64,000 nt of DNA from NCBI GenBank assembly GCA_913061515.1, contig CAJXSF010000010.1:5808-69807 (forward strand), read 5' to 3'. The DNA comes from an uncultured Gammaproteobacteria bacterium (lineage in GTDB: Bacteria; Pseudomonadota; Gammaproteobacteria; Pseudomonadales; Pseudohongiellaceae). Below, piece by piece: positions 18,127 through 31,562 of this stretch. Every line of letters starts with the position of its first letter. Position 1 is the first letter of the stretch. Below the pieces are notes generated by a model. The model saw nothing but the letters and a program-made list of their open reading frames with translations, did not search any database and had not been told where the DNA came from. A program made the translations under genes and the position numbers.

Positions 18127-19500
18127 TTAATTCTGCGGAGCAACTAACCAATCGCCCACTTCGGACAGGTCTTCGGCACTGAGTGTGCCCGCTTCGCGCT
18201 TAAGAAGCAGATTGTATCGAATGTGGTCGTATCTTGCGCGTTGTAAATCACGTTCTGCACGAAAGCGTGCGCCCAAAGCGTTCAATACATCGACACTTGT
18301 CACTGTGCCAAGCTCAAAACCACGTTGCTGCGCCGTGTACGAAAGCGCGGTGGACTCGGCGAGACGTTCGGCTGCGCGCACCCGCAGCTCGCTGGCTTTG
18401 ACTTGCAAATAGGCGGTACGCGTACGCTCAATGATTTCTAATTCGATTTGGCGCAGTTCATTTTCGGCGATGCGGTGTTGGCTGCGCGCTTCGCTTACGC
18501 CAGCTTTACTACGGCCGCTGGTAAAGATGGGGATTTGTACGTCAACGCCGATGTAGTCTGTGGTTGTGCGGTTGGCCTGCAAGGCGTTGTCAAAACCAAT
18601 ATTCGAATCCTGCTTGTTTAAGATCAAAGAGACGCGAGGCATATAGGCGCCTTTGCTTTCAGAGATACGTTTGTCGGCAGCCTGCACGGCAAACTCTCGG
18701 GCCAGTATCTGATGGTTTCCGCTACGTGCGCGCTCTAACCATGATTCAATGCTGCCCTCTAAGGCGGGAATATCGATTTCTTCATCAAGGCGGTAGAGTT
18801 CGCCAACAGTAACGCCAGACACGGCGCGCAGTTGCTCTTTCGCAATGGCTAGCTCACTCTCTAAATTTAACTGTTCGGCTTGCACGGCGGCCTGTCTGGC
18901 CTGCACTTCATACAAATCGGTGATTTGCACAGCTTGCAGATTGTACAGGCTTTCGACTTGCGCAAGCTGGCGATTGACCGCATCTAGCTCCGCCGTCACT
19001 GAAGTCACGGCGTCTTGAGCCTGTAGAACAGCGAAATATTTCTCAGCCACATCGGTAAGCACAAAGGCCAGCTGCCCGAAGTACTCCGCCTCGGATTGCT
19101 CCTCTATCAAATAGGCTCTGCCGCGGGCATTAAAGGCCTGCCAATTAAACAATACTTGGGTGAGCTGTAAGGAATAGCGCTCACCGCGATACTTTGTGGT
19201 TTGATTGATTGCATCTTGGGTTTGCGTGTTATCTGATACGCTAGCGTTTGCATTGACCTGTGGCATTAGCTGCCCATTCGCTGCTCGTTTTCTTGCAGAG
19301 CTGATATTCAAGCGCTCTCGCGATATTCGCAGCTCAGGGCTGTAGTCCAATGCCGAGGTAAAGAAATCCTCTAGCGTGCTGCCTTGCACAATAATGCGCG
19401 TCACGGCTTGCTCTTCAAGCTCCGCTGCCATCATTGGCGTAAGCAGGCTTGCGCCAAGGCTTAGAGTAAGGGCTAGAATAATTAATCGCTTCATAGACAT
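18127..19500 (-). CDS. TolC-family type I secretion outer-membrane factor
   Basis: Signal peptide and two-repeat OMF architecture with long coiled helices. ATG 19498-19500 overlaps the hlyD-like stop by 1 nt. Confidence 0.85.
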   Translation of the reverse strand: MSMKRLIILALTLSLGASLLTPMMAAELEEQAVTRIIVQGSTLEDFFTSALDYSPELRISRERLNISSARKRAANGQLMPQVNANASVSDNTQTQDAINQTTKYRGERYSLQLTQVLFNWQAFNARGRAYLIEEQSEAEYFGQLAFVLTDVAEKYFAVLQAQDAVTSVTAELDAVNRQLAQVESLYNLQAVQITDLYEVQARQAAVQAEQLNLESELAIAKEQLRAVSGVTVGELYRLDEEIDIPALEGSIESWLERARSGNHQILAREFAVQAADKRISESKGAYMPRVSLILNKQDSNIGFDNALQANRTTTDYIGVDVQIPIFTSGRSKAGVSEARSQHRIAENELRQIELEIIERTRTAYLQVKASELRVRAAERLAESTALSYTAQQRGFELGTVTSVDVLNALGARFRAERDLQRARYDHIRYNLLLKREAGTLSAEDLSEVGDWLVAPQN

Positions 19501-20867
19501 CAATCTTCACGCAAGCTGCGAGCAAGCGCGTTAGAGAATGGTTTCATCACATACTGCAAGAAAGTGCGTGAGCCGGAAGTGATAAAGACTTCGGCAGGCA
19601 TGCCTGGCACTAGTATTAGGCCATCAAGATCTTCCATTCCCTCTGGTGTCACAGCAACCCGTGCCAAATAGTAAGTCATTCCTGTTTGTCGATCGCTCAT
19701 CGCATCGGCTGAGACAGAAATGACACTGCCGGTAATCGTAGGCACAGAGCTGCCAAAACTAGAAAAACGAATGGTTGCCTCTTGCCCAGTCTGCACACGG
19801 TCAATGTCACCTAGTGAAACTCTCGCTTCGATGATTAATTCGTCGCTCTGAGGCACGACCTCACCAATGGGGGCACCTGGCCCGATGACGCCACCCTCGT
19901 TGTGAAACTGCATGCCACTGACGATGCCAGCCTCGGGTGCACGTATCACTGTGCGGTCTACAACGTCGGTTAAAGCAATCATGCGCTCGCGAATATCTTT
20001 CAGGCGCGTTTGTGTTTCGCTCAATTGTGTCACGACTTCTGAGCGGAATTCGTTTTCTGTTTGTAGAATTTGTAACTGGGTTTCACCAATCTGCATTTCT
20101 GTCGATGAGATAGTGGAGACAAGTTCGGCCGCTTCGCCGTTATAGGCCGCATGGCTGCGCTCTAATTCGCGCAAGCGCAATTTATCCGAAAACCCTTCCT
20201 CTAAAAGGATACGCACATCGGCTAGTTCCTCGCCGAATGAGGTCGCCAGTGCCTCTTTGCTCTGTTTCATCGCTTGCAGGCCACTCACGCGTGAGCGTAG
20301 TTGTTCTATGCGTTGCTCCAAGACGGCTATACTGCCTTCTCGTGATCTTTTGCGCGCTAGAAAAATTTGATCCTGTGCCGCCATCTCGGCGACGGCATTC
20401 GGATTGCTTGAAGACAACGATGCCGGATAGTTGATTGATTCGAGGTCGTCCCGCTCCGCAATCAAGCGTGCCTCTAGTGCTGTTAAGGCAATGAACTGCG
20501 CACTCGCAATCTCAAGTTGCGCTTGCGACTGTGTATTGTCTAGTTCGATTAAAGGCGCGCCTGCCTCAACATAGTCACCATCGCGCGCATAGATGCGTTT
20601 GATCATGCCGCCTTCTAAGTGCTGCAAAACTTTTTTGTAGGAGCGAACGGTCACAGAGCCTGGTGCGTGTGCTGCGCCTTCAATAGGTGCCACGGTTGCC
20701 CATACGCCAAAAACGCCGAACACAAGGAACACAATGATCAGTCCGATGCGGCGCGGCGAATCCATGTTTGTTTCAACTTCTATGGTCTGGGCCGCGCGCG
20801 CGGGAGCACTGGGCTTGTCAGCCGTCATCGCGGGCAAATTGTCCTGAGCCTTTTTAATATCTGTCAC
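19500..20867 (-). CDS. HlyD-family type I secretion membrane-fusion protein
   Basis: N-terminal TM (IGLIIVFLVFGVFGVWATVAPI), a long coiled-coil and C-terminal barrel motifs (LVPGMPAEVFI). Confidence 0.9.
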   Translation of the reverse strand: MTDIKKAQDNLPAMTADKPSAPARAAQTIEVETNMDSPRRIGLIIVFLVFGVFGVWATVAPIEGAAHAPGSVTVRSYKKVLQHLEGGMIKRIYARDGDYVEAGAPLIELDNTQSQAQLEIASAQFIALTALEARLIAERDDLESINYPASLSSSNPNAVAEMAAQDQIFLARKRSREGSIAVLEQRIEQLRSRVSGLQAMKQSKEALATSFGEELADVRILLEEGFSDKLRLRELERSHAAYNGEAAELVSTISSTEMQIGETQLQILQTENEFRSEVVTQLSETQTRLKDIRERMIALTDVVDRTVIRAPEAGIVSGMQFHNEGGVIGPGAPIGEVVPQSDELIIEARVSLGDIDRVQTGQEATIRFSSFGSSVPTITGSVISVSADAMSDRQTGMTYYLARVAVTPEGMEDLDGLILVPGMPAEVFITSGSRTFLQYVMKPFSNALARSLRED

Positions 20868-20903
20868 TGTTTATATCCCAAACTAGTAAATTCTGTGTGT
20901 GCG

Positions 20904-22613
20904 CTATGCCTGCGCGGCTTTGTTCTGCGGCATGAGACTGGCAAGCACTTGCTCGCGCGGGCCGAAGCTCTTCGCCGTGCCGTCTTTCATCACCAAAATT
21001 TTGTCGGTGACCATCAACACCATTGTGCGGTGTGTGATTACGATGACTGTGCAACCTTGTTCTTTAACGCGTTGAAGTGCCAGCACCAATTCGCGTTCGC
21101 CTTGGTCGTCGAGATTGGAGTTCGGTTCATCGAGCACTAATAATTTAGGGTTGCCATAAACTGCTCTGGCAAGCCCAATACGCTGTCGTTGTCCGCCTGA
21201 CAAAATGCCACCGCTACCGCCAATGACCGTGTCATAACCGTTAGGTAAACGCAGAATTAGTTCATGTACACCGGCAAGCTGTGCTGCTTGCACCACCTTC
21301 TCAGGGTCTAGCTCACCAAAACGGCTGATGTTTTCTGAGATGGAGCCATCGAAAAGTTCGATATCTTGGGGTAAGTAACCGATGTGCGGGCCAAGCTCGC
21401 GGCGATCCCAAGCGAAAATATCGGCACCGTCCAAGCGGACCTTGCCACCGCCGGTTGGCCAAATCCCTAAAAGGGCGCGAGCAAGGCTCGATTTTCCAGA
21501 GGCGCTAGGGCCGACTATGCCAAGAATATCGCCAGCATCTAATTCAAAGCCAACGCCTGCCACCACGGGTGCTTTTGCGCCTGGTGGTGTGACATATACG
21601 CCTTCAACGCTGATCTGCCCAGTAGGGGCAGGCAATGACATTCTTTCTTCATCTTTAGGAATACGCTCTAATAATTGACCGAGGCGTTCGTATTGAGCGC
21701 GCGCGACAGAGAAGCCCTTCCAGGTGCCTACTAATAGGTCAATTGGGGCTAGAGCGCGGCCAAGAAGTAGCGAGCCGGCAATCACCATGCCTGGGGAGAT
21801 TTCTTGTTCCAAGGCGAGCAAAGCCCCTAAGCCAAGAATCAAAGACTGTGTGATCATACGAAAAGATTTAGAGAAGGTGCCAAGTAGCCCAGCACGACGG
21901 CTAGCGTCAGTTTGCAAGAACAATACTTTGTCGGCACGCTCTTGTTGGCGATGACGGATGCCATCGATCATGCCCATGGCTGCGATCACTTCGGAGTTGC
22001 GCATGCTGCCATTGATCTGGTTATTAACCCAGTTTGCCTCTACGTTGGCTTCTTTGAGTTTTTCGTTAGTGGCTTTTTCAGTGGCAAAGGCAAAAGCAAT
22101 CATCACAATGCCTGAGATGATTCCCACCACTCCAAACCATGGGTGAAACATAAACATCACGGCAATATAGATAGGGAACCAAGGGGCATCGAAAAATGCG
22201 AATAGCCCATTGCCAGTCATAAACTGGCGCAACTGTGATAGGTCGCTATTGGGTTGGGCTCCGCCGCCCATGCCGCCTGAATAAAGGTTTTGCTTAAAGC
22301 TGGCGTCGAATACGCGATTGCGCAGTCCAGTCTCGATTTTATTACTAGCGCTTGTCAGTATCATGGTGCGAACCCATTCGAAACCGCCCATCGCTGCAAG
22401 CAAGAACACCATAATAATTGTCAATGTGCCAAGAGTGGATAAGCTGCCACTAGACATCACTCGATCATATACTTGCAACATGTACAGAACAGGCACAAGC
22501 ATCAAGATATTGATGGCAGCGCTGAATGCCCCCGCATAGATGAAATAATGACGGACGGCCTTGAAAGCCTCGTAGAGCTCTTTGTATCTAACTTTGTTTT
22601 TTGGATCGTTCAT
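20904..22613 (-). CDS. Type I secretion ABC transporter, PrtD/RsaD type (no C39 peptidase domain)
   Basis: Six-TM domain plus an NBD with GPSASGKSSLARAL, LSGGQRQRIGLARA and LLVLDEP. About 569 aa. Confidence 0.92.
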   Translation of the reverse strand: MNDPKNKVRYKELYEAFKAVRHYFIYAGAFSAAINILMLVPVLYMLQVYDRVMSSGSLSTLGTLTIIMVFLLAAMGGFEWVRTMILTSASNKIETGLRNRVFDASFKQNLYSGGMGGGAQPNSDLSQLRQFMTGNGLFAFFDAPWFPIYIAVMFMFHPWFGVVGIISGIVMIAFAFATEKATNEKLKEANVEANWVNNQINGSMRNSEVIAAMGMIDGIRHRQQERADKVLFLQTDASRRAGLLGTFSKSFRMITQSLILGLGALLALEQEISPGMVIAGSLLLGRALAPIDLLVGTWKGFSVARAQYERLGQLLERIPKDEERMSLPAPTGQISVEGVYVTPPGAKAPVVAGVGFELDAGDILGIVGPSASGKSSLARALLGIWPTGGGKVRLDGADIFAWDRRELGPHIGYLPQDIELFDGSISENISRFGELDPEKVVQAAQLAGVHELILRLPNGYDTVIGGSGGILSGGQRQRIGLARAVYGNPKLLVLDEPNSNLDDQGERELVLALQRVKEQGCTVIVITHRTMVLMVTDKILVMKDGTAKSFGPREQVLASLMPQNKAAQA

Positions 22614-22747: not shown

Positions 22748-23554
22748 CTATAGCTCTTGCTTACCTTCTGCTAAGGCTTGCAAGGTGTCGGGGTCAATAA
22801 TGAGCAAGCAACCGGGCCCGTCGCGTTTCACTATTTGCTTGGCCTGTAGTGTTTGAAACACCCGCGTGACGGTTTCGCGGCTCAGGCTTAGCATGATGGC
22901 AATCTCCATATGCGTTGGCGGATTATTGATCATCGATGGCACTTGGCCATTTTTCTCTTTGGCAGTAAGTAACATCCACAATTGGCAGCACACCCGTTGG
23001 CTGATGTTGGGCAGGCCCAAGAGCGAGCGTTGTCGCGTCATTTGGCGCAATCGCGCGGCAAGCCTTTCTCCTAATACCTTAAAGATATTTGGCTGTTTCA
23101 GCATAATTTCGCGCAGGCTTTCCATCGGAATAAACACTGTGACGGCTGCGGTTAAGGCGATGACATACTCGGGCTGCGTGCCGTGATCAAATAAGCCTAA
23201 TTCGCCGCAAAAGTCGCCTGGTTCCACGAAATAAAGGCCCACTTCCCGGCCATCAATGGTAAAATCTACCCCCTGCAAGCGCCCTTCAAATAAAAAGCAC
23301 ACAGCGTCTTCATGAATTCCCGCATTTAATACAATGCCACGGCGGGCAAATTTGCGCAGGCTAGCCAGCGGCGCAAGTTCACTCAATATTTCGTGAGGCA
23401 AGGGCTTTAATATTGGAAAAGTGCTTAGCAGCTCTGGGGTTACCACGATACAGTTTTTGTCCCTGATGGCTGGATTCGGCGACGCTCCGGCATTATAGGA
23501 GGTTGCTGATGAATAGCAAACGCCAGTACTTGCGTGCCGTGTGACTGTAATCAC
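22748..23554 (-). CDS. Crp/Fnr-family transcriptional regulator
   Basis: cNMP-binding-like beta-roll (GDFCGELGLF) and a C-terminal HTH SRETVTRVFQTL that matches the E. coli CRP RETVGR recognition helix. GTG start, so the start is uncertain. Confidence 0.8.
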   Translation of the reverse strand: MITVTRHASTGVCYSSATSYNAGASPNPAIRDKNCIVVTPELLSTFPILKPLPHEILSELAPLASLRKFARRGIVLNAGIHEDAVCFLFEGRLQGVDFTIDGREVGLYFVEPGDFCGELGLFDHGTQPEYVIALTAAVTVFIPMESLREIMLKQPNIFKVLGERLAARLRQMTRQRSLLGLPNISQRVCCQLWMLLTAKEKNGQVPSMINNPPTHMEIAIMLSLSRETVTRVFQTLQAKQIVKRDGPGCLLIIDPDTLQALAEGKQEL

Positions 23555-23647
23555 CCAGTGATGAATTAGCTTGCCGTATCATTGTCAAAGTCAATCTAGG
23601 TCAGTTGCGTTTTACTGGCCCTTTACTCCCAAGCGGGGGAAGAGAAT

Positions 23648-25042
23648 ATGAAACTCACATTACAAGCAGTTCGCCCACAATTCGCGTTGCGCTTTGCGCT
23701 GCTGCCATTGCTGTTTGCCTTTAACACGGTGAATGCGCAAACCGTTAGCAGCGTGGGTGAAGTCAGTTTGGTGCTTGGCAAGGCCTATATCAAATCAGGC
23801 GATAGCCAAGAGCGTGTGCGCGCTGGCATGAAAGTCAGCGTGAGCGATGAAATTATCACGGAAGCCAATGGCCATGTGCATATTCAGTTTGTCGATGACG
23901 CCTTGGTCAGTGTTCGCCCTGATAGCAAGTTAGAAATTCAACGCTATGATTTCGATGCAGCCAATCCTGCTAACTCCTCTATTAAACTAAACCTGCTAGA
24001 GGGTATCGCGCGTTCTATTTCTGGCGATGGCGCCCATGCAGCGCGCGATCGTTTCCGCATGAACACCCCTATTGCTGCAATTGGTGTGCGTGGCACAGAC
24101 TTCGTCGTTAGTGCTTCGAGCCAATCCGTTCGTGCTCTAGTCAATGAGGGAGCCATTGTCATGGCGCCCTTCTCCAACGATTGCTTAGCAACTGCATTTG
24201 GGCCTTGTGCGGCGAATGCCGTTGAGCTTTCCCAAGATTCTTTGCAGATGGTCGCCATCGAGGGTGACGTCGCCTTGCCAAGATTAATGCCCGCCTCTGA
24301 CGAGCGTGGCAATTTATCTGAGGCTGGCGAAGTGGCTGTTGCAGAGGCGGACACTCGCACTGAAGACAAAGCCGTAGGCTCAGATGTTTACCTAGAAAAC
24401 GTCACTTCCTTAAAAGTGGCCGAAGAGGCCAATATTGTTGCGGCAGCCAAGCCTAAACCACCGGTTGTGACGCCACCTGTGACTGTATTGCCTGACTTTA
24501 CCCCAGAGATTGCTGTTGCCTCCTCGGCACTTGAAAGCAATAACTTGATTTGGGGGCGGTGGTCAGGCCGTGACGAAGGCTATGGCGACTTGGAGCGCAT
24601 CACTGTCTCTGAAGAAGTGGCAAGCGCCGGGCGCGATATCATGATTCTAAACGACAACTACCGTTTGTTCCGCGATAGTAATGGCAGCACCTTAGTTAAC
24701 CCTAATCTCAATGTGGTGAGCTTTGCTTTGAACAGTGCCCAGGCCTTCTATCACTCAGGTTCTGGCGTAATGGCCATGGAGGTTAATAACGGTTCTTTGC
24801 AGGTCAATTTTTGGGCCAAAAGTTTCGCTACGCAGTTGGGGCTTAGCTCTGCAGCCTCTGGGGCAGTCGATTTCTCTGCTTCGGGAATTTATGTCGATGG
24901 TGGTTTCTTCTATAACAACTCCGACACCCAGATTATTCGCGGTGCGGTAAGTTTGGATGGCACAGAGGCGGGTTATGTATTCGAAAAACAACTCGGTACT
25001 GACACTAGCGTTGAAGGGATCACCTTGTGGGGTGCGCCGTAG
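23648..25042 (+). CDS. Secreted FecR-domain protein with C-terminal TbpB-like beta-barrel signature
   Basis: Sec signal (...FNTVNA/QT, no lipobox). FecR-like segment (GHVHIQFVDDALVSVRPDSKLEI ... IAAIGVRGTDFVV). The C-terminal about 130 aa has a strand pattern ending GAVSLDGTEAGYVFEK...GITLWGAP. Confidence 0.65.
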   Translation: MKLTLQAVRPQFALRFALLPLLFAFNTVNAQTVSSVGEVSLVLGKAYIKSGDSQERVRAGMKVSVSDEIITEANGHVHIQFVDDALVSVRPDSKLEIQRYDFDAANPANSSIKLNLLEGIARSISGDGAHAARDRFRMNTPIAAIGVRGTDFVVSASSQSVRALVNEGAIVMAPFSNDCLATAFGPCAANAVELSQDSLQMVAIEGDVALPRLMPASDERGNLSEAGEVAVAEADTRTEDKAVGSDVYLENVTSLKVAEEANIVAAAKPKPPVVTPPVTVLPDFTPEIAVASSALESNNLIWGRWSGRDEGYGDLERITVSEEVASAGRDIMILNDNYRLFRDSNGSTLVNPNLNVVSFALNSAQAFYHSGSGVMAMEVNNGSLQVNFWAKSFATQLGLSSAASGAVDFSASGIYVDGGFFYNNSDTQIIRGAVSLDGTEAGYVFEKQLGTDTSVEGITLWGAP

Positions 25043-25044
25043 TC

Positions 25045-27042
25045 ATGAGCAGCACTCGCCGACTTAATCCTCTTAGCCAAGGCCTTGCGTATTTAGTGCG
25101 CTTAGTGCCCATGAACGCGCGTCTTTTGATGCTGGCGTTGGCGGCAGCATTGACGGCGTTGATCGTGACTGTGTTCGATGACAGCCTAGAAACCTTGCAA
25201 GAAAATTTGGGTGCCCTGGGCTGGACTTTAAACGTCGATAACACCTTAGAGCAGCGTTTCAGCATTATTGCTATCGATGAGAAAAGTGTGGCTCAAGAAG
25301 GCGCTTGGCCCTGGCCGCGTGACACCATGGCGCGCTTGGTCGCCTCGTTAACGCAAGCCGGCGTGTCTTTGCAATTGCACGATATTGTCTTCCCTGAGTC
25401 TTCTGCCGGTGATGATGCCTTGGCCAGCGCTTTGCAGGCCGCCCCGGGTGCGGTACTAGCGCAACTACCGGTGTTAGGATCAGAGCAAGTGCTGCGCACC
25501 GGCAGTTTGACCCATGCAGTCACTGGCATTAATTGTGAAAGTGGCCTGCCAGCGACCTCTAATTACCTTGGCAACAACGCTAGTTTTTTGAATATTCCGA
25601 AAGGGCATATCGCACCGATCGTGTCAGCAGATGGCGCCATCCGCAAGATGCCTGGCTTGATTTGTGTTGATGGGCAGGCTTATCCCGCGTTGCCAATTAG
25701 TGCATTTTTACAGGCTTTGAACACGCAAGTATGGGCAGCCACGCTTAGCCCAACTGAATCGTTATTTGGGCCTGCGCAAACGCTGCAGCTTGATGCCTAC
25801 CCAGGTTTACGTATTCCGCTAGATGCGCAAGGCAATCTACGTATTTCTTACCGCAATAGCCCTAGTGCCTATCGCGTAATTTCCGCAGCCGATGTGCTCA
25901 ATGGCGATATTGACGCGGGCATGCTCGAAAATAGCTGGGTGTTGATTGGCGCTACCGCATTTGGCATTGGCGATATCGTTCCGACTCCTTATAGCGGCGC
26001 GACTCAGGGTGTTGAGTTGCAAGCACGTATTCTGGGCAGCTTGCTCGATACCAATGTGCCTTATACGCCAAGCGGCGCATGGCTGTTTTTGCTGGCCTTA
26101 TGCGCCATCAGTGCGGCCGTCCTCTTTGCCTTGGCCGGTGCCCGCGAGCGCTTTGCGAGTTATGGGCTGCCTATAGCGGGGGCTGTTTTGCCTTTGCTGG
26201 CACTAGGCCTGCATATCGAACTGCTTAATATGAGCAATATATGGCTTGGTTGGGTATCCCCCGCCCTGTTCAGCGTGTGCGCGGCAAGTGCCTTGATGTT
26301 GCTTGAGCAGGCAAGAGTGCGCAATGAGCGCAGCCGTGTGTTTGGCAATCTCAATGCCTATTTGCCAAGCGATGTGGCCAAAGAAATTGCCTTTAGTTTG
26401 CCCAGCTCTAGCGTCAATGCGCGCCGCAGTGAAGTCACCTTATTGAGCGCCGACCTGCGTAACTTCTCTGCCTTTAGCGAGGCGCGTCCCCCAGAAGAGT
26501 CAGCCGCACTGCTGCATTACTTCTTCGTGCGTGCTGCTGAGATTGTCGAGCAGCATGGCGGGCGTATTCATGAGTTTAAAGGCGATGGTCTGTTGGCTGT
26601 TTGGGATGGCCACGATGCGCGCGCCGCACAACAAGCCTTGAGTGCCGCCCAATCAATGGAGGGCTCAATCGCTCGTGATATGCCGCAAGCCCCGCCGGAA
26701 GGTTTAGAGCCTTTGGCATTAGGGATTGGTATAGAGCAAGGCCCAGTGTTGATAGGCTCTATTGGCCCAGCACAGCGCCGAACGCATACCTTATTGGGCG
26801 ATACTGTCACCATCGCTTTGCGTATTCAGGAAATGACAACCGAACTTGCGTTGCCGATCTTGGTGGGCGAATGCGCTGCGCGCAATTTGCAAGGTCAAAA
26901 GCTTGAATCTCAAGGTAGTTACCTTTTGACTGGTTTGAATACGCCCCATGTGTTGTTTTCGCCTCCGCTAGACGCTCTTCCTGTTCGCCGCGCAAAGTCT
27001 GAATCTGTGACGCTCACAGTATTATCGGGCGGCAAGCGCTGA
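25045..27042 (+). CDS. CHASE2-domain class III nucleotide (adenylate/guanylate) cyclase
   Basis: TM, an about 300-aa extracytoplasmic segment, three TMs, then a cyclase homology domain (LLSADLRNFS, EFKGDGLLAVW, LLGDTVTIALRIQE). ATG at 25045 lies 2 nt after the fecR-domain stop. Confidence 0.85.
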   Translation: MSSTRRLNPLSQGLAYLVRLVPMNARLLMLALAAALTALIVTVFDDSLETLQENLGALGWTLNVDNTLEQRFSIIAIDEKSVAQEGAWPWPRDTMARLVASLTQAGVSLQLHDIVFPESSAGDDALASALQAAPGAVLAQLPVLGSEQVLRTGSLTHAVTGINCESGLPATSNYLGNNASFLNIPKGHIAPIVSADGAIRKMPGLICVDGQAYPALPISAFLQALNTQVWAATLSPTESLFGPAQTLQLDAYPGLRIPLDAQGNLRISYRNSPSAYRVISAADVLNGDIDAGMLENSWVLIGATAFGIGDIVPTPYSGATQGVELQARILGSLLDTNVPYTPSGAWLFLLALCAISAAVLFALAGARERFASYGLPIAGAVLPLLALGLHIELLNMSNIWLGWVSPALFSVCAASALMLLEQARVRNERSRVFGNLNAYLPSDVAKEIAFSLPSSSVNARRSEVTLLSADLRNFSAFSEARPPEESAALLHYFFVRAAEIVEQHGGRIHEFKGDGLLAVWDGHDARAAQQALSAAQSMEGSIARDMPQAPPEGLEPLALGIGIEQGPVLIGSIGPAQRRTHTLLGDTVTIALRIQEMTTELALPILVGECAARNLQGQKLESQGSYLLTGLNTPHVLFSPPLDALPVRRAKSESVTLTVLSGGKR

Positions 27043-27194
27043 TATTCTAGCTAGGTATTTTCAAGACAGATTCCCGTCACATAAAAGGGTGTTTTGTTAT
27101 TGCTTGTGGCGCCTTGTTTCATGATAATTGCGCAAATAAATTTACATGACATACGCTTCGATATGTCTGTCGCCTAGCCGGACCCACAGACACT

Positions 27195-28502
27195 ATGCGC
27201 TGGTCAATCCTCACTTTTAGTTTCTTGCTCCCCTTATCTGCGCACGCGTGCCCCGATCTGCAATCGTTTTATCAATATGATGACGACGTGGAGTCACAAA
27301 TTGAGTTGGAGTCTGCTTTAGCTCCCTTGATGAGTGAGTGTTTGCGCAGCCCTGAATTTTTTGCGCTTTACGGCGCGGCTTTAATGGAGACGGGCAAGCT
27401 CTCAGTTGCGCTGGAGATGCTCGAACGCGCCTTATTGCTTGACGCTAACAATGGCTCTGCGCTGATCGACTATGCGCAAGCGCTATACTTGCGCGGACAA
27501 TTGTTCTCGGCACTCGATCTCAATCAGCAACTCAGCCAGCGCCAAGATCTGCCTGCCAATATCGCAACTCTAGTCGCAGAGCGCGAAGAGCGCTGGCGCC
27601 GTGATACTCGTGCTTATGGGGTGCAGCTAGATGTGCTGGCCGGTTTTGACAACAACCTCAACGGGGCGCCAGACCCAAATCAAATTACCCTTACGCTTTC
27701 AGGCGAGCCAGTCATATTGACACTCAACCCAGAGTTTCAGGCGATTAGCGGGCCCTATCTAAACCTACGATTGGGCGGGCAATTTCAACAGCTGGCTTCT
27801 GACCACCAACACAATGTAACGGGGGAGATAAGAAGCCGAATCAGTGAAGACGCCGCTTCGGACCTCATTCAGGCCTCTGCCCATTACAATTACTTGTTAC
27901 CTAAACGGGACAATGCTTGGCAGTTTGGTGGAGGGATGAGCCATCTATTCTTCGGTGGCAACCCGCTTTACACCGCCGTGGATAGCAATGTTCGCTATCA
28001 AAAAATAACTTCCAGGAGTTGTACCCGCCGGTATGAGTTGGCTGGGCAATATCAGCTGTACAACGATCAAAGCCGTTTGAACTCGATCGAGAGCAAGCTT
28101 AGTGCAGGCTTGGATTGCCCAGTGCAGGCTTTGGGCTTGCCTACCTTGTTGGGCGGCGAGTTGGCCATAGTCCATAGCGCAGCCCTCAAAGATGGCCGCC
28201 CTGGTGGGGACCGCTTGGGCTGGCAATTCAATCTTGCTTGGCAGTTTCCGCTTTTAGGCGGCATGTTGACTAGCCAGCTTAGCCATACAGAATTGGACGA
28301 CCAAAAGGGCTATAGCGCCTTGCTAGATGACGGCGCACAACGCTGGGTAAAACGTAGCTTCGCGCTGCTGCAATACAGGCAAATGCTGCAGCCTAACTTG
28401 GCGTTTATGTTCAATATTTATCATCAAAACCAGCATAGCAATATCGAACTTTTTGACAGCGTCGACAGCACCCTCGAACTTGGCATAAGCGCTAGCTTTT
28501 AA
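27195..28502 (+). CDS. Outer-membrane protein: N-terminal TPR-like region + C-terminal beta-barrel (DUF560/Slam-like architecture)
   Basis: Signal peptide (LLPLSAHA), TPR-like helices (ALYGAALMETGKLSVALEMLERALLLDANNGSALIDYAQALY), then an amphipathic strand pattern with a terminal Phe (...LGISASF). The family assignment is by eye only. Confidence 0.45.
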   Translation: MRWSILTFSFLLPLSAHACPDLQSFYQYDDDVESQIELESALAPLMSECLRSPEFFALYGAALMETGKLSVALEMLERALLLDANNGSALIDYAQALYLRGQLFSALDLNQQLSQRQDLPANIATLVAEREERWRRDTRAYGVQLDVLAGFDNNLNGAPDPNQITLTLSGEPVILTLNPEFQAISGPYLNLRLGGQFQQLASDHQHNVTGEIRSRISEDAASDLIQASAHYNYLLPKRDNAWQFGGGMSHLFFGGNPLYTAVDSNVRYQKITSRSCTRRYELAGQYQLYNDQSRLNSIESKLSAGLDCPVQALGLPTLLGGELAIVHSAALKDGRPGGDRLGWQFNLAWQFPLLGGMLTSQLSHTELDDQKGYSALLDDGAQRWVKRSFALLQYRQMLQPNLAFMFNIYHQNQHSNIELFDSVDSTLELGISASF

Positions 28503-28674
28503 AAACAAAGTTAATTGTTTAAAAATAGCAGCTTACGGCCGCATCTTAATGAAACAAACAGCTTGTAATTGCTAGGCAGTCCTAGTAGTATCTTCGCCCA
28601 TGTCCGCTTGTGGTCAGGAATCACTATGCCATTTAAGTGGGTTCAACTAGGAATATTCAGCAAGTTTTCGTCTA

Positions 28675-28690
28675 TGTGACTGTAGTCACA
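28675..28690. promoter_or_regulatory. Perfect CRP-type palindrome TGTGA-CTGTAG-TCACA upstream of the S-layer-like gene
   Basis: Read directly. A TATCCT hexamer at 28712-28717 would place the box near -41.5 (class II geometry). The ATG is at 28806. Confidence 0.6.
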
Positions 28691-28805
28691 GGGAAGTGAA
28701 AGCGAACTGCGTATCCTTGGCACAACCGAATGGGGTCATCCGCTGTTGTAGGCGTGTCACAATCGGATAAAACAAATTGGATTAAAATTTTAAGGAGTTC
28801 TAACA

Positions 28806-31562
28806 ATGGCGATTACCGTCGAAGCTCGTACCAATCTCGTAGGCCTCGTAGTAGGTATGTTTGGTGCTGCACCAGGTGCAAGTGTTTTGTCTGACCTAGT
28901 AGCATCTTACGAAGCAGGCGCAACAATCAAGCAAATCGCAGCTAACCTTGCGAACACTACTGAATTCACAGGCATTTTCCCAACTTTCCTTACTAACGAA
29001 GAGTTTGCAACTAAAGTTGTTAATCAACTAGTTGGTAGCGAAGTTGTTCAAGCTGAAAAAGACGCAGCCGTTACTACTCTAGTAGGCATGCTAAACGGTG
29101 GCGCAAGCCGCACAGATGTATTCGTTGACGCAATCGCTGCTGTTGACGCTCTACAATCTACTAACGCTGCATGGGCAAATGCCGGTGCTGCGTTCGATAA
29201 CAAAGTCGAAGTCGCAGTTTACTACTCTGTTGAAAAACAACTAAGTGGTGCATCTTTGCAAGCGCTTCAAAACGTAGTGGCTTCAGTTACTAGCAGCGCA
29301 GCTTCAGTAACTAGTGCGAAAGCATCTGTAGACAACGTACAGAATCCAGGTTCTACGTTCTCATTCACTACCGGTGTGGATGCACTCGTCGGCGCTTCTG
29401 CTGATGACGTGTTCAATGCTACAGTAACTAGTACCTCTGCAACTTTGGGTGCGCTTGACACTGTTGATGGCGGTGCAGGTAACGACACTATGAATGTAGT
29501 GGAGACTGGAGTAGCCGCCAACGCGGATTACGTCCTTCCAACTGGACTTTCAATAAAGAATGTAGAAACTTTGAAAGTTACAACTAATGGCGCCCTAGGC
29601 ACACTGGCTGGTACTAACTTTGACGTGTCTGCTATTGCAGGTTTGACTTCATTTGTAGGCGCTGCTGCTGGTGCAGGTACTGCGACTGGTAGTGAAATAA
29701 AGGCAGCTGGAACTACTGATGTTACTTTAACTGTTGCAGGCGCAAATGCTGCAACTGTTAATGGTGGTAAGGATGTACATGTAAATGCAGGCACTGGTGG
29801 TGTAACTACTATCGCTGGTTTGGCTTCTGGTACTTCTTCTGCTTCTGTTAAAGGTGGTGGTAATGTTGTTGTATCTGGTAATAGCATGAAGAGCCTAACA
29901 TTGGATGCTATCGCTGGTACAACTGCGGGCTTTACTTCTACTGGTGGTGCAACTGTTACTGTTAAAAACCAGACTTCTGCATTGGCCACAACTGTGACTA
30001 ATGCAACATCAACTGCGCTAACTGTTAACGTTGATGGCGTTGGTTATACTGCTGTTGGTGGTACTACACCAGTTGCCGTTTCTGTTGCTGCTGGCTCAGC
30101 TGCTGCAACTATCAACCTAAATGCTACTGGCAATAAGAGCAGTGTTACTGTTTCAGGCGCTGCCGCAAAGACATTGAACATTACTGGTAGTGCTGCACTA
30201 ACATTGGCCAGTCCTCTTGCAACTGCGACTAAAATTGATGGCTCTGCCGCAACAGGCGCTTTGACTCTTGGCGATTTGAACGCTGGTACTCTTACAGTTA
30301 CTACTGGCTCGGGCGATGATTCTCTAGCTGTTCAAGCAACAACGGCAGCTACTGTAACTACTGGAGCTGGTAACGACACAGTGACATTAAAATCTGCTCT
30401 TGCTGCAGCTTCAAAAATCACTCTAGGTGCAGGCAACGACACAGTGTTGTTCGGCACTGGTGGTAGTGTTGCAACTTCAACTTCAACAGTTATTGATGGC
30501 GGAGACGGTGACGACTCTGTATCTGCTAACCTAATCAATGCTGGAAATGCGACTCAGTTTGTAAACTTTGAGAAAGTGAACTTAGATAGCGCTACTGGTC
30601 TTGATCTTGCTTTGTTGACTGGTAACACTATTTCTGGTTTGACTATCAGTGGCGCTGCTGCTGCTAACGCAACTTATCAGAATGTAAAGCTTGCCAACTC
30701 ATTGACTGTTGATTATGTGGGTTTAAACACAAACACAAATACATTGACTTTCTCTGACGCAAGTGGAACTTCTGACACTTACAGCATCACTTTCGCAGGT
30801 GTTGGTGCTTCTACTCCAACTAGTGCAACAGTGGGCGCCGGCACAGTTGCTGCTCAAGGTATTGAGAACTTCAGTATCGTTTCTGGTGGGACAAAAGCCT
30901 GGAACTCCTTGACTCTTGGTACAAACACTGTAGCGAAAACAGTTACCATTACGGGTGACGCTAAACTGGATTTAGCATTTACTGCGTTTGGTACTGCGGG
31001 TGCATCTGGTGTTACTTCAATTGATGGCTCTGCAGCAACTGGTGCCTTGTCTATCAATGCAGCTAACATTGGCAAAGCAACTGCTGGACTCACAATCAAA
31101 GGTGGTTCTGCAGCAGACACGCTAACTGCTAGTACAGTATCTGTTAGTCTAACTGGTGGTGCTGGTGCAGACTCGTTCAATGTTGCAGCTGCTCTTGTTG
31201 GCACTGCTACTCCTGCAGGTTTGGTAACTACTACAATTACTGATGCAACAGCTGGTGATAAGATTATCTTCGCTGACTTAGGTACAGAAGTATTTACTTC
31301 TACTAAGATTAACGTAAGTACAGCAACTGCATTGATTGGCGGTACAACAAATGCCCTAGACTTAGCGGCTGCAGCTGCAGACTCTAGTACAAACGGCCAA
31401 ATCACTTGGTTCCAGTATGCTGGTGACACGTATGTTGTTCAGGAGCTGGGCGCAAATGCAGCTGTAATTGGCACTGACGATGTCGTTGTTAAGTTAACTG
31501 GTCTAATTGATCTGTCTACTGCAACTTACGACGCAACGACTAACGCACTAACTTTGGTGTAA
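28806..31562 (+). CDS. Large Cys-free Ala/Thr/Gly/Val/Ser-rich surface-layer / RTX-like protein, probable T1SS substrate
   Basis: Strong SD AAGGAG and no signal peptide. Sparse GGxGxD-like motifs (GGAGNDTMN, GAGNDTVTL, GAGNDTVLF, GGDGDDSVS, GGAGADSFN), repeated IDGSAATGAL, and an acidic hydrophobic C-terminus (...VVVKLTGLIDLSTATYDATTNALTLV). A T1SS lies nearby. Confidence 0.7.
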   Translation: MAITVEARTNLVGLVVGMFGAAPGASVLSDLVASYEAGATIKQIAANLANTTEFTGIFPTFLTNEEFATKVVNQLVGSEVVQAEKDAAVTTLVGMLNGGASRTDVFVDAIAAVDALQSTNAAWANAGAAFDNKVEVAVYYSVEKQLSGASLQALQNVVASVTSSAASVTSAKASVDNVQNPGSTFSFTTGVDALVGASADDVFNATVTSTSATLGALDTVDGGAGNDTMNVVETGVAANADYVLPTGLSIKNVETLKVTTNGALGTLAGTNFDVSAIAGLTSFVGAAAGAGTATGSEIKAAGTTDVTLTVAGANAATVNGGKDVHVNAGTGGVTTIAGLASGTSSASVKGGGNVVVSGNSMKSLTLDAIAGTTAGFTSTGGATVTVKNQTSALATTVTNATSTALTVNVDGVGYTAVGGTTPVAVSVAAGSAAATINLNATGNKSSVTVSGAAAKTLNITGSAALTLASPLATATKIDGSAATGALTLGDLNAGTLTVTTGSGDDSLAVQATTAATVTTGAGNDTVTLKSALAAASKITLGAGNDTVLFGTGGSVATSTSTVIDGGDGDDSVSANLINAGNATQFVNFEKVNLDSATGLDLALLTGNTISGLTISGAAAANATYQNVKLANSLTVDYVGLNTNTNTLTFSDASGTSDTYSITFAGVGASTPTSATVGAGTVAAQGIENFSIVSGGTKAWNSLTLGTNTVAKTVTITGDAKLDLAFTAFGTAGASGVTSIDGSAATGALSINAANIGKATAGLTIKGGSAADTLTASTVSVSLTGGAGADSFNVAAALVGTATPAGLVTTTITDATAGDKIIFADLGTEVFTSTKINVSTATALIGGTTNALDLAAAAADSSTNGQITWFQYAGDTYVVQELGANAAVIGTDDVVVKLTGLIDLSTATYDATTNALTLV

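Follow-up and report, generated by a model that had tools for sequence, protein, structure and literature searches.

A conserved Crp-type site of class II geometry precedes an RsaA-like S-layer gene in Pseudohongiellaceae and is probably read by a dedicated local regulator

The gene for an RsaA-like S-layer protein, located in a 64,000-nucleotide stretch of DNA from an uncultured member of the Pseudohongiellaceae (the window), is preceded by a perfect TGTGA-N6-TCACA palindrome that is kept, at a fixed distance from a -10 hexamer, in front of S-layer genes across the family. We propose that a Crp-family regulator encoded in the same window binds this palindrome and a second, nearly identical site in front of a sensor operon, that it activates in the class II manner from these sites, and that they belong to a private regulon, an explanation which we regard, taken as a whole, as reasonably likely.

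A perfect palindrome in front of the S-layer gene

The palindrome, TGTGACTGTAGTCACA (28675-28690, hereafter box 2), extends to 7+7 letters, TGTGACT-GT-AGTCACA, and is the only perfect TGTGA-N6-TCACA core in the window. Dinucleotide-shuffled versions of the window held such a core 0.04 times on average, with at least one match in 4 of 100 shuffles; the first-pass annotation had estimated about 0.06 per 64 kb. The sequences and coordinates given there for the box, the hexamer TATCCT, the AAGGAG, the ATG and the upstream pair TTGTAA-17-TAGTAT were exact. Its report of no second copy holds for the perfect core but misses a copy that matches at 15 of 16 positions, TGTGACTGTAATCACC (box 1, 23540-23555), in the promoter region shared by the divergent regulator and FecR operon. 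Boxes 1 and 2 are the only sites in the window with at most one mismatch, and their spacers are one letter apart. A chance match was rejected as an account of box 2, the box being present in every orthologous locus.

After a gap of 21 nt, box 2 is followed by TATCCT (28712-28717, forward strand), the predicted -10 hexamer of a promoter that we call P2 and a match to TAnnnT, whose spacing from the box is conserved. Transcription from P2 is predicted to start near 28724, which would place the centre of box 2 at -41.5. The -35 position reads CAGGGA, agreeing with TTGACA at 2 of 6 letters, and a consensus promoter scan found no sigma-70 match at this position. Further downstream, the AAGGAG at 28792-28797 is followed by the ATG of the S-layer-like gene at 28806. 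The P2 leader is nearly invariant within the genus and is opened, a few nucleotides after the P2 start, by a predicted stem-loop with a CCGA...TCGG base (28726-28766, forward strand; RNAalifold consensus of 20 sequences), in which most pairs are invariant and two apical pairs covary (UA/CG); the covariation support is weak. No Rfam family matched the region 23300-29000 at E values up to 1. A sigma-54 promoter, considered on account of a TGGCAC just after the hexamer, was rejected on direct reading, the -12 GC being absent or 2 nt out of register in the window and in relatives.

Conservation and fixed geometry at two boxes

Box 1 has the same layout as box 2. The hexamer TATCAT of the FecR operon lies 21 nt 3' of it (23577-23582, forward strand), which would again centre the box at -41.5, and three genes follow on the same strand, each assigned by a Pfam match: a FecR-domain protein (23648-25042), a CHASE2 class III cyclase (25027-27042) and a TPR protein (27195-28502). 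The three genes (23648-28502) are presumed to form a sensor operon driven from box 1.

Within the genus, where the regulators are 71-97% identical, box 1 was found in 21 of 21 loci and the perfect core of box 2 in all 17 loci that extend that far; the most diverged species differ in the central letters (e.g., TGTGATTGTCGTCACA) and have unchanged half-sites. Across the family, 76 of 80 loci have box 1 upstream of the regulator, and the four without a scored box have short flanks, outside the scanned range. A further 20 longer loci from eight other genera all carry box 1, and every one of these keeps the order ABC - regulator - FecR - cyclase - TPR. Box 2 is perfect in 14 of 14 family loci with a linked S-layer homologue and before seven unlinked S-layer genes. 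A box with a TAnnnT 21-22 nt downstream was present in all 38 S-layer-gene loci examined, from nine genera, with the caveat that the related genomes behind these conservation counts are not independent samples. Drift affects the four central nucleotides and the flanking sequence, while both boxes are kept in nine genera of the Pseudohongiellaceae. Taken together, they give the profile TGTGAY(T)-NN-(A)RTCAC(A), in which the final A is consistently missing from box 1.

The distance between box and hexamer is held within narrow bounds. Among 77 distinct box 1 loci, the gap to TAnnnT is 21 nt in 73, 22 nt in two and 20 nt in two, and among 37 distinct box 2 loci it is 21 nt in 34 and 22 nt in three. 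Elsewhere between 8 and 39 nt, as well as on the other flank of the box, TAnnnT occurs in at most about 10% of loci (0-1 for box 2 at other gaps), and the 21-nt spacers themselves are only 34-41% identical between loci. Since the centre of a 16-mer that stands 21 nt before a -10 hexamer falls at -41.5, the two boxes have, judged from sequence, one architecture, that of class II Crp/Fnr-dependent promoters. The earlier prediction that the S-layer-like gene is under Crp-family control from a class II position is supported by this comparison of 38 out of 38 loci, and the box itself is almost certainly a conserved protein-binding site.

The box is also paired with the S-layer gene in particular. 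Cassettes that lack an S-layer gene beside the TPR gene have no box 2 after the TPR gene. In seven genomes (G140, G072, G057, G163, G049, G061 and G137), unlinked S-layer genes are preceded by a perfect box and, 21-22 nt after it, a TAnnnT; the gene lies about 65 kb away in G140, about 700 kb away in G072 and on a separate contig in G061. By this comparison, the box travels with the S-layer gene and not with the cassette.

The S-layer protein, its exporter and its paralogues

The gene downstream of box 2 (28806-31562, forward strand) encodes a predicted RTX-type protein of 918 aa that matches Caulobacter RsaA structures over residues 399-916 (E 1e-22) and gives a weak match to RTX repeats. Genes for a type I secretion system lie nearby on the reverse strand, namely TolC (18127-19503), HlyD (19500-20867) and an ABC transporter (20904-22613), and this system (18127-22613) is predicted to export the S-layer protein. 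No box precedes the exporter genes, the sites in the window with at most one mismatch being the two boxes described. A SapC-family gene follows the S-layer gene. Because of the RsaA match, the adjacent ABC/HlyD/TolC exporter and the SapC-family gene, the label of S-layer-like is well founded, and the homology and the adjacent exporter indicate that the protein fits the RsaA type of S-layer protein exported by type I secretion.

Some relatives (G147, G153, G134, G169 and G163) have large families of S-layer paralogues with a common N-terminal region of about 258 aa. On the closed 3.38-Mb chromosome of G147 (loci L159-L164 and L193-L203), 17 S-layer paralogues were scored among 69 candidates, and a TGTGA-N6-TCACA box was present in 16 of 16 readable upstream regions, 15 times perfect and once with one mismatch. 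Four of these 16 boxes lie about 88-90 nt before the ATG with a TATAAT 23 nt after the box, and the other 12 lie several hundred nucleotides further upstream, within a repeated element. In G153 one of six S-layer copies has a box, and in G169 none of the four examined does.

Two probable promoters and the predicted mode of action

A second candidate promoter, P1, is of the sigma-70 type (TTGTAA-17-TAGTAT, 28563-28591, forward strand) and lies about 84 nt upstream of box 2. Because P1 is conserved across the family, in the form TTGTnn-17-TAnnAT, the S-layer gene probably has two promoters rather than one, with P1 canonical and P2 dependent on an activator. A hairpin that follows P1 (28604-28640) differs in sequence between genera. 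A block AAAATAG-NN-GCTTAC (28520-28540), which precedes the P1 -35 element by about 25 nt, is kept across genera and could be a UP element or the site of another factor.

From the geometry of P2 we infer activation by the local regulator (22748-23446). A dimer would bind box 2, centred at -41.5 relative to P2, and, P2 having the -10 hexamer TATCCT and no usable -35 element, would recruit RNA polymerase in the class II manner, the mode that this centre and the poor -35 make most plausible at P2; transcription of the RsaA-like S-layer gene would be switched on, or boosted. We consider it likely that the regulator activates P2 in this way. The same protein would bind box 1 in the same geometry and drive the FecR-domain, CHASE2-cyclase and TPR operon, and would thus control the presumed signal generator together with the surface-layer protein. 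P1, some 110 nt further upstream, would probably give basal S-layer expression.

Box 2 might instead be an operator. The regulator bound there would roadblock elongation from P1, or would act in two ways, silencing P1 and firing P2, and the outcome could be repression or a switch between promoters instead of simple activation. This reading draws on the fact that P1 is conserved as widely as the box, also before unlinked S-layer genes, and that box 2 falls at about +80 of the predicted P1 transcript, a position from which a bound protein could obstruct transcription. However, at both boxes the distance to the TAnnnT hardly varies, which a mere roadblock would not require; at box 1 this geometry is found without a co-directional promoter upstream; and the distance from P1 to the box differs between genera. 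An operator role is accordingly, in our estimate, clearly improbable.

The local regulator as the probable reader

The regulator that we propose as the class II activator is encoded on the reverse strand (22748-23446; Pfam cNMP_binding and HTH_Crp_2). Its annotated GTG start at 23554 appears to be an over-extension, since relatives align from about residue 37 and have stops upstream, and the start is probably the GTG at 23446, which leaves box 1 intergenic. An ORF from the GTG at 23554 would run across box 1 and across the regulator's own promoter, TTGCTA-16-TATAAT (23492-23519, reverse strand), which is conserved. The distance from that promoter to box 1 ranges from 42 to 108 nt between genera with no helical phasing, so that box 1 keeps a rigid spacing only on the side of the FecR operon. 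This variable and unphased distance lends no support to class I autoregulation of the regulator promoter from box 1.

Three Crp-family proteins were found in the source genome, namely the local regulator, a Vfr/CRP orthologue (contig C54) and an FNR/Anr-like protein. The recognition helix of the local regulator, SRETVTR, aligns with RETVGR of CRP and matches its Arg180, Glu181 and Arg185, and across the family the helix takes the form SRE[TSA]V[TS]R with R-E-x-V-x-R invariant. The FNR/Anr-like paralogue has a Cys cluster and an ETVSR helix and was rejected as a reader on these grounds; from what is known of its family, it would presumably read TTGAT-type sites. With the helix CSREMAGRVL in the Vfr/CRP orthologue, both that protein and the local regulator could in principle read TGTGA.

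The first-pass annotation had offered the global CRP/Vfr homologue and the local regulator side by side, and the comparison of genomes decides in favour of the local regulator. Of 11 genera, the same nine have the regulator and the N-terminal domain of the S-layer protein; the other two, g18 (0 of 16) and g20 (0 of 13), yielded neither. No Vfr orthologue was found in the closed genomes G140, G085, G137 and G147, where the only Vfr match was the local regulator, and in the closed genome G064 Vfr is a pseudogene with stops and frameshifts (C1:3041950-3042443). Several other closed genomes of the same genus as G064 (g22) lack any Vfr. By these gene contents, the global regulator Vfr has been lost repeatedly in the Pseudohongiellaceae. 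In G140, G085, G137 and G153, the local regulator is the sole protein above the Pfam HTH_Crp_2 cut-off. These four genomes keep box 1, and those checked also keep the S-layer box.

Were Vfr the reader of the box, S-layer expression would be tied to general cAMP signalling. The Vfr orthologue of the source genome has an Arg-Glu...Arg helix with which it could recognise TGTGA half-sites, and it may co-bind in the source species. Against this stand the closed Vfr-less genomes, which keep both boxes and the hexamer; the presence of Vfr in g18 (12 of 16) and g20 (12 of 13), genera that have neither the regulator nor the S-layer gene nor the cassette; and the perfect core, which is not enriched genome-wide (see below). 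We take Vfr to be a very unlikely reader, and the local regulator very probably reads the box.

We give almost no credence to a role of the palindrome as a hairpin (a 6-bp stem with a 4-nt loop), of RNA or DNA, in the long P1 leader, for instance as a processing or attenuation signal. The 16-mer can fold in this way within a P1-derived leader, but the Y at box position 6 and the R at position 11 vary independently, with no covariation; the non-pairing C/A is the commonest combination in box 1 (32 of 79); the half-sites never show a compensatory change; the last base of box 1 is non-complementary; the sequence is found again in a divergent promoter region that is not transcribed; and the region has no Rfam match.

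A presumably small and private regulon

In the 3.23-Mb source genome, the perfect core occurs twice and a reversed control pattern five times, so the motif is not enriched genome-wide. A position weight matrix built from the boxes returned three strong sites, with scores of 24.9 (box 2, the top of the genome), 23.9 and 22.1 (box 1), and the next best site scored 17.1. The third strong site, TGTGATTGCAGTCACT, lies outside the window (contig C5:38313-38328; L150 5314-5329), 19 nt before an extended -10 element, TGcTAAACT, and upstream of a membrane ORF of 70 aa. It is kept only in the three closest species (G000, G001 and G008) and is for that reason not a core member of the regulon. A genome-wide CRP regulon was rejected, given the unenriched core and the mere three matches that stand out from the matrix scan, and with three outstanding sites in the genome the regulon appears tiny and private.

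Signal and ligand

The phosphate-binding cassette of the regulator reads GELGLFDxGxQP in all orthologues, with Gln-Pro where CRP and Clr have Arg-Ser, and it lacks the canonical phosphate-binding Arg-Ser/Thr pair. The cyclase domain (26377-27039) is likewise unusual, having Glu and Thr at the two substrate-specifying positions, as in guanylate cyclases, and a further Thr at the position that the catalytic Asn occupies in GDxVNxAxR. Its best match among solved structures is PDB 2w01, an entry labelled adenylate cyclase, which we take to be the Synechocystis guanylyl cyclase Cya2.

A step in which the cyclase makes a nucleotide that acts on the regulator is suggested by the conserved linkage of the genes. 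The link is not secure, given the regulator without Arg-Ser and the residue changes in the cyclase, and we regard a nucleotide from the adjacent cyclase as a possible but somewhat doubtful ligand. The Gln-Pro of the regulator and the Glu, Thr and missing Asn of the cyclase allow a ligand other than cAMP or signalling by the cyclase domain without catalysis; the ligand could be cGMP or another nucleotide. More speculatively, the module may be a feedback circuit from the envelope to the S-layer that works without ordinary cAMP signalling, with the box as the output of a sensing route not yet described, which tunes S-layer production to the state of the outer surface; where S-layer paralogues are many, the box might also mark which copies are expressed. 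We consider this reading rather unlikely.

Comparison with known systems

Few bacterial proteins are as abundant as those of S-layers, and their synthesis is generally regarded as constitutive. A predicted dedicated Crp-family switch and a presumed envelope sensor operon, coupled to each other and conserved family-wide, suggest that S-layer output is signal-controlled in the Pseudohongiellaceae, which are widespread aquatic Gammaproteobacteria. The hypothesis is precise, naming two 16-bp sites and one regulator, and cultured Pseudohongiella strains, among them P. nitratireducens SCS-49 (locus L077), carry the regulator with box 1, making genetics possible. The regulator would also illustrate how, in nature, a Crp paralogue can retain the DNA specificity of CRP while having a private regulon and an apparently changed ligand pocket.

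Class II CRP/FNR promoters of E. coli, of which galP1 is typical, have a 16-bp TGTGA-N6-TCACA site centred at -41.5 and 21 nt from the -10 element, where it replaces the -35 element, and the cognate protein has an Arg-Glu...Arg recognition helix. The promoters described here resemble them in the site, the 21-nt gap that would centre it at -41.5, the poor -35 element of P2 and the matching helix of the regulator, all read from sequence in our case. Unlike E. coli CRP, which is global, the predicted reader is a locally encoded, dedicated paralogue that has some three sites per genome, and its cNMP pocket lacks the phosphate-binding Arg. Unlike galP1-type promoters, P2 has an S-layer gene as its target and a second conserved promoter upstream.

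The closest described system is the pathway of CHASE2 cyclases (CyaD1/CyaD2/CyaK) and Clr in S. meliloti, which likewise combines CHASE2 class III cyclases with a Crp-like regulator. Among solved structures, the best match of our regulator is S. meliloti Clr (PDB 7pza), with E. coli CRP also among the best. Members of the Clr regulon include smc02177, which has a FecR domain, and the TPR protein smb20495, and the palindromic Clr-box TGTTN8AACA (HGTYHCNNNNGRWACW) stands before its targets (PMC5498481). In contrast, the box described here, TGTGAY-N4-RTCAC, does not match the Clr-box, and the helix is SRETVTR where S. meliloti Clr has SRPKVNR. S. meliloti Clr binds cAMP through a canonical Arg-Ser pair, whereas the local regulator is without that pair, and the output is an RsaA-like S-layer protein here and infection control in S. 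meliloti.

P. aeruginosa Vfr (PDB 2oz6 and 7ff8) likewise comes from the Pseudomonadales and shares the type of half-site and a similar helix. Vfr is a global regulator in P. aeruginosa, whereas the boxes of the Pseudohongiellaceae persist in genomes that have lost it.

With regard to the target, the system resembles RsaA of Caulobacter crescentus and SapA of Campylobacter fetus in having an RsaA homologue, predicted to be exported by a type I secretion system, next to a SapC-family gene, and the multi-copy S-layer families of some relatives recall the sapA cassette families of Campylobacter fetus. Expression of rsaA in Caulobacter is constitutive, and variation of sapA in Campylobacter fetus comes about through promoter inversion and recombination. 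In contrast to the predicted site for a Crp-family activator before the S-layer gene here, none is known to have been described for the RsaA and SapA systems. Among the papers searched, none connected an S-layer gene with a Crp-family regulator and none dealt with both Pseudohongiella and an S-layer, and an S-layer review contains nothing on transcriptional regulation (PMC4232325).
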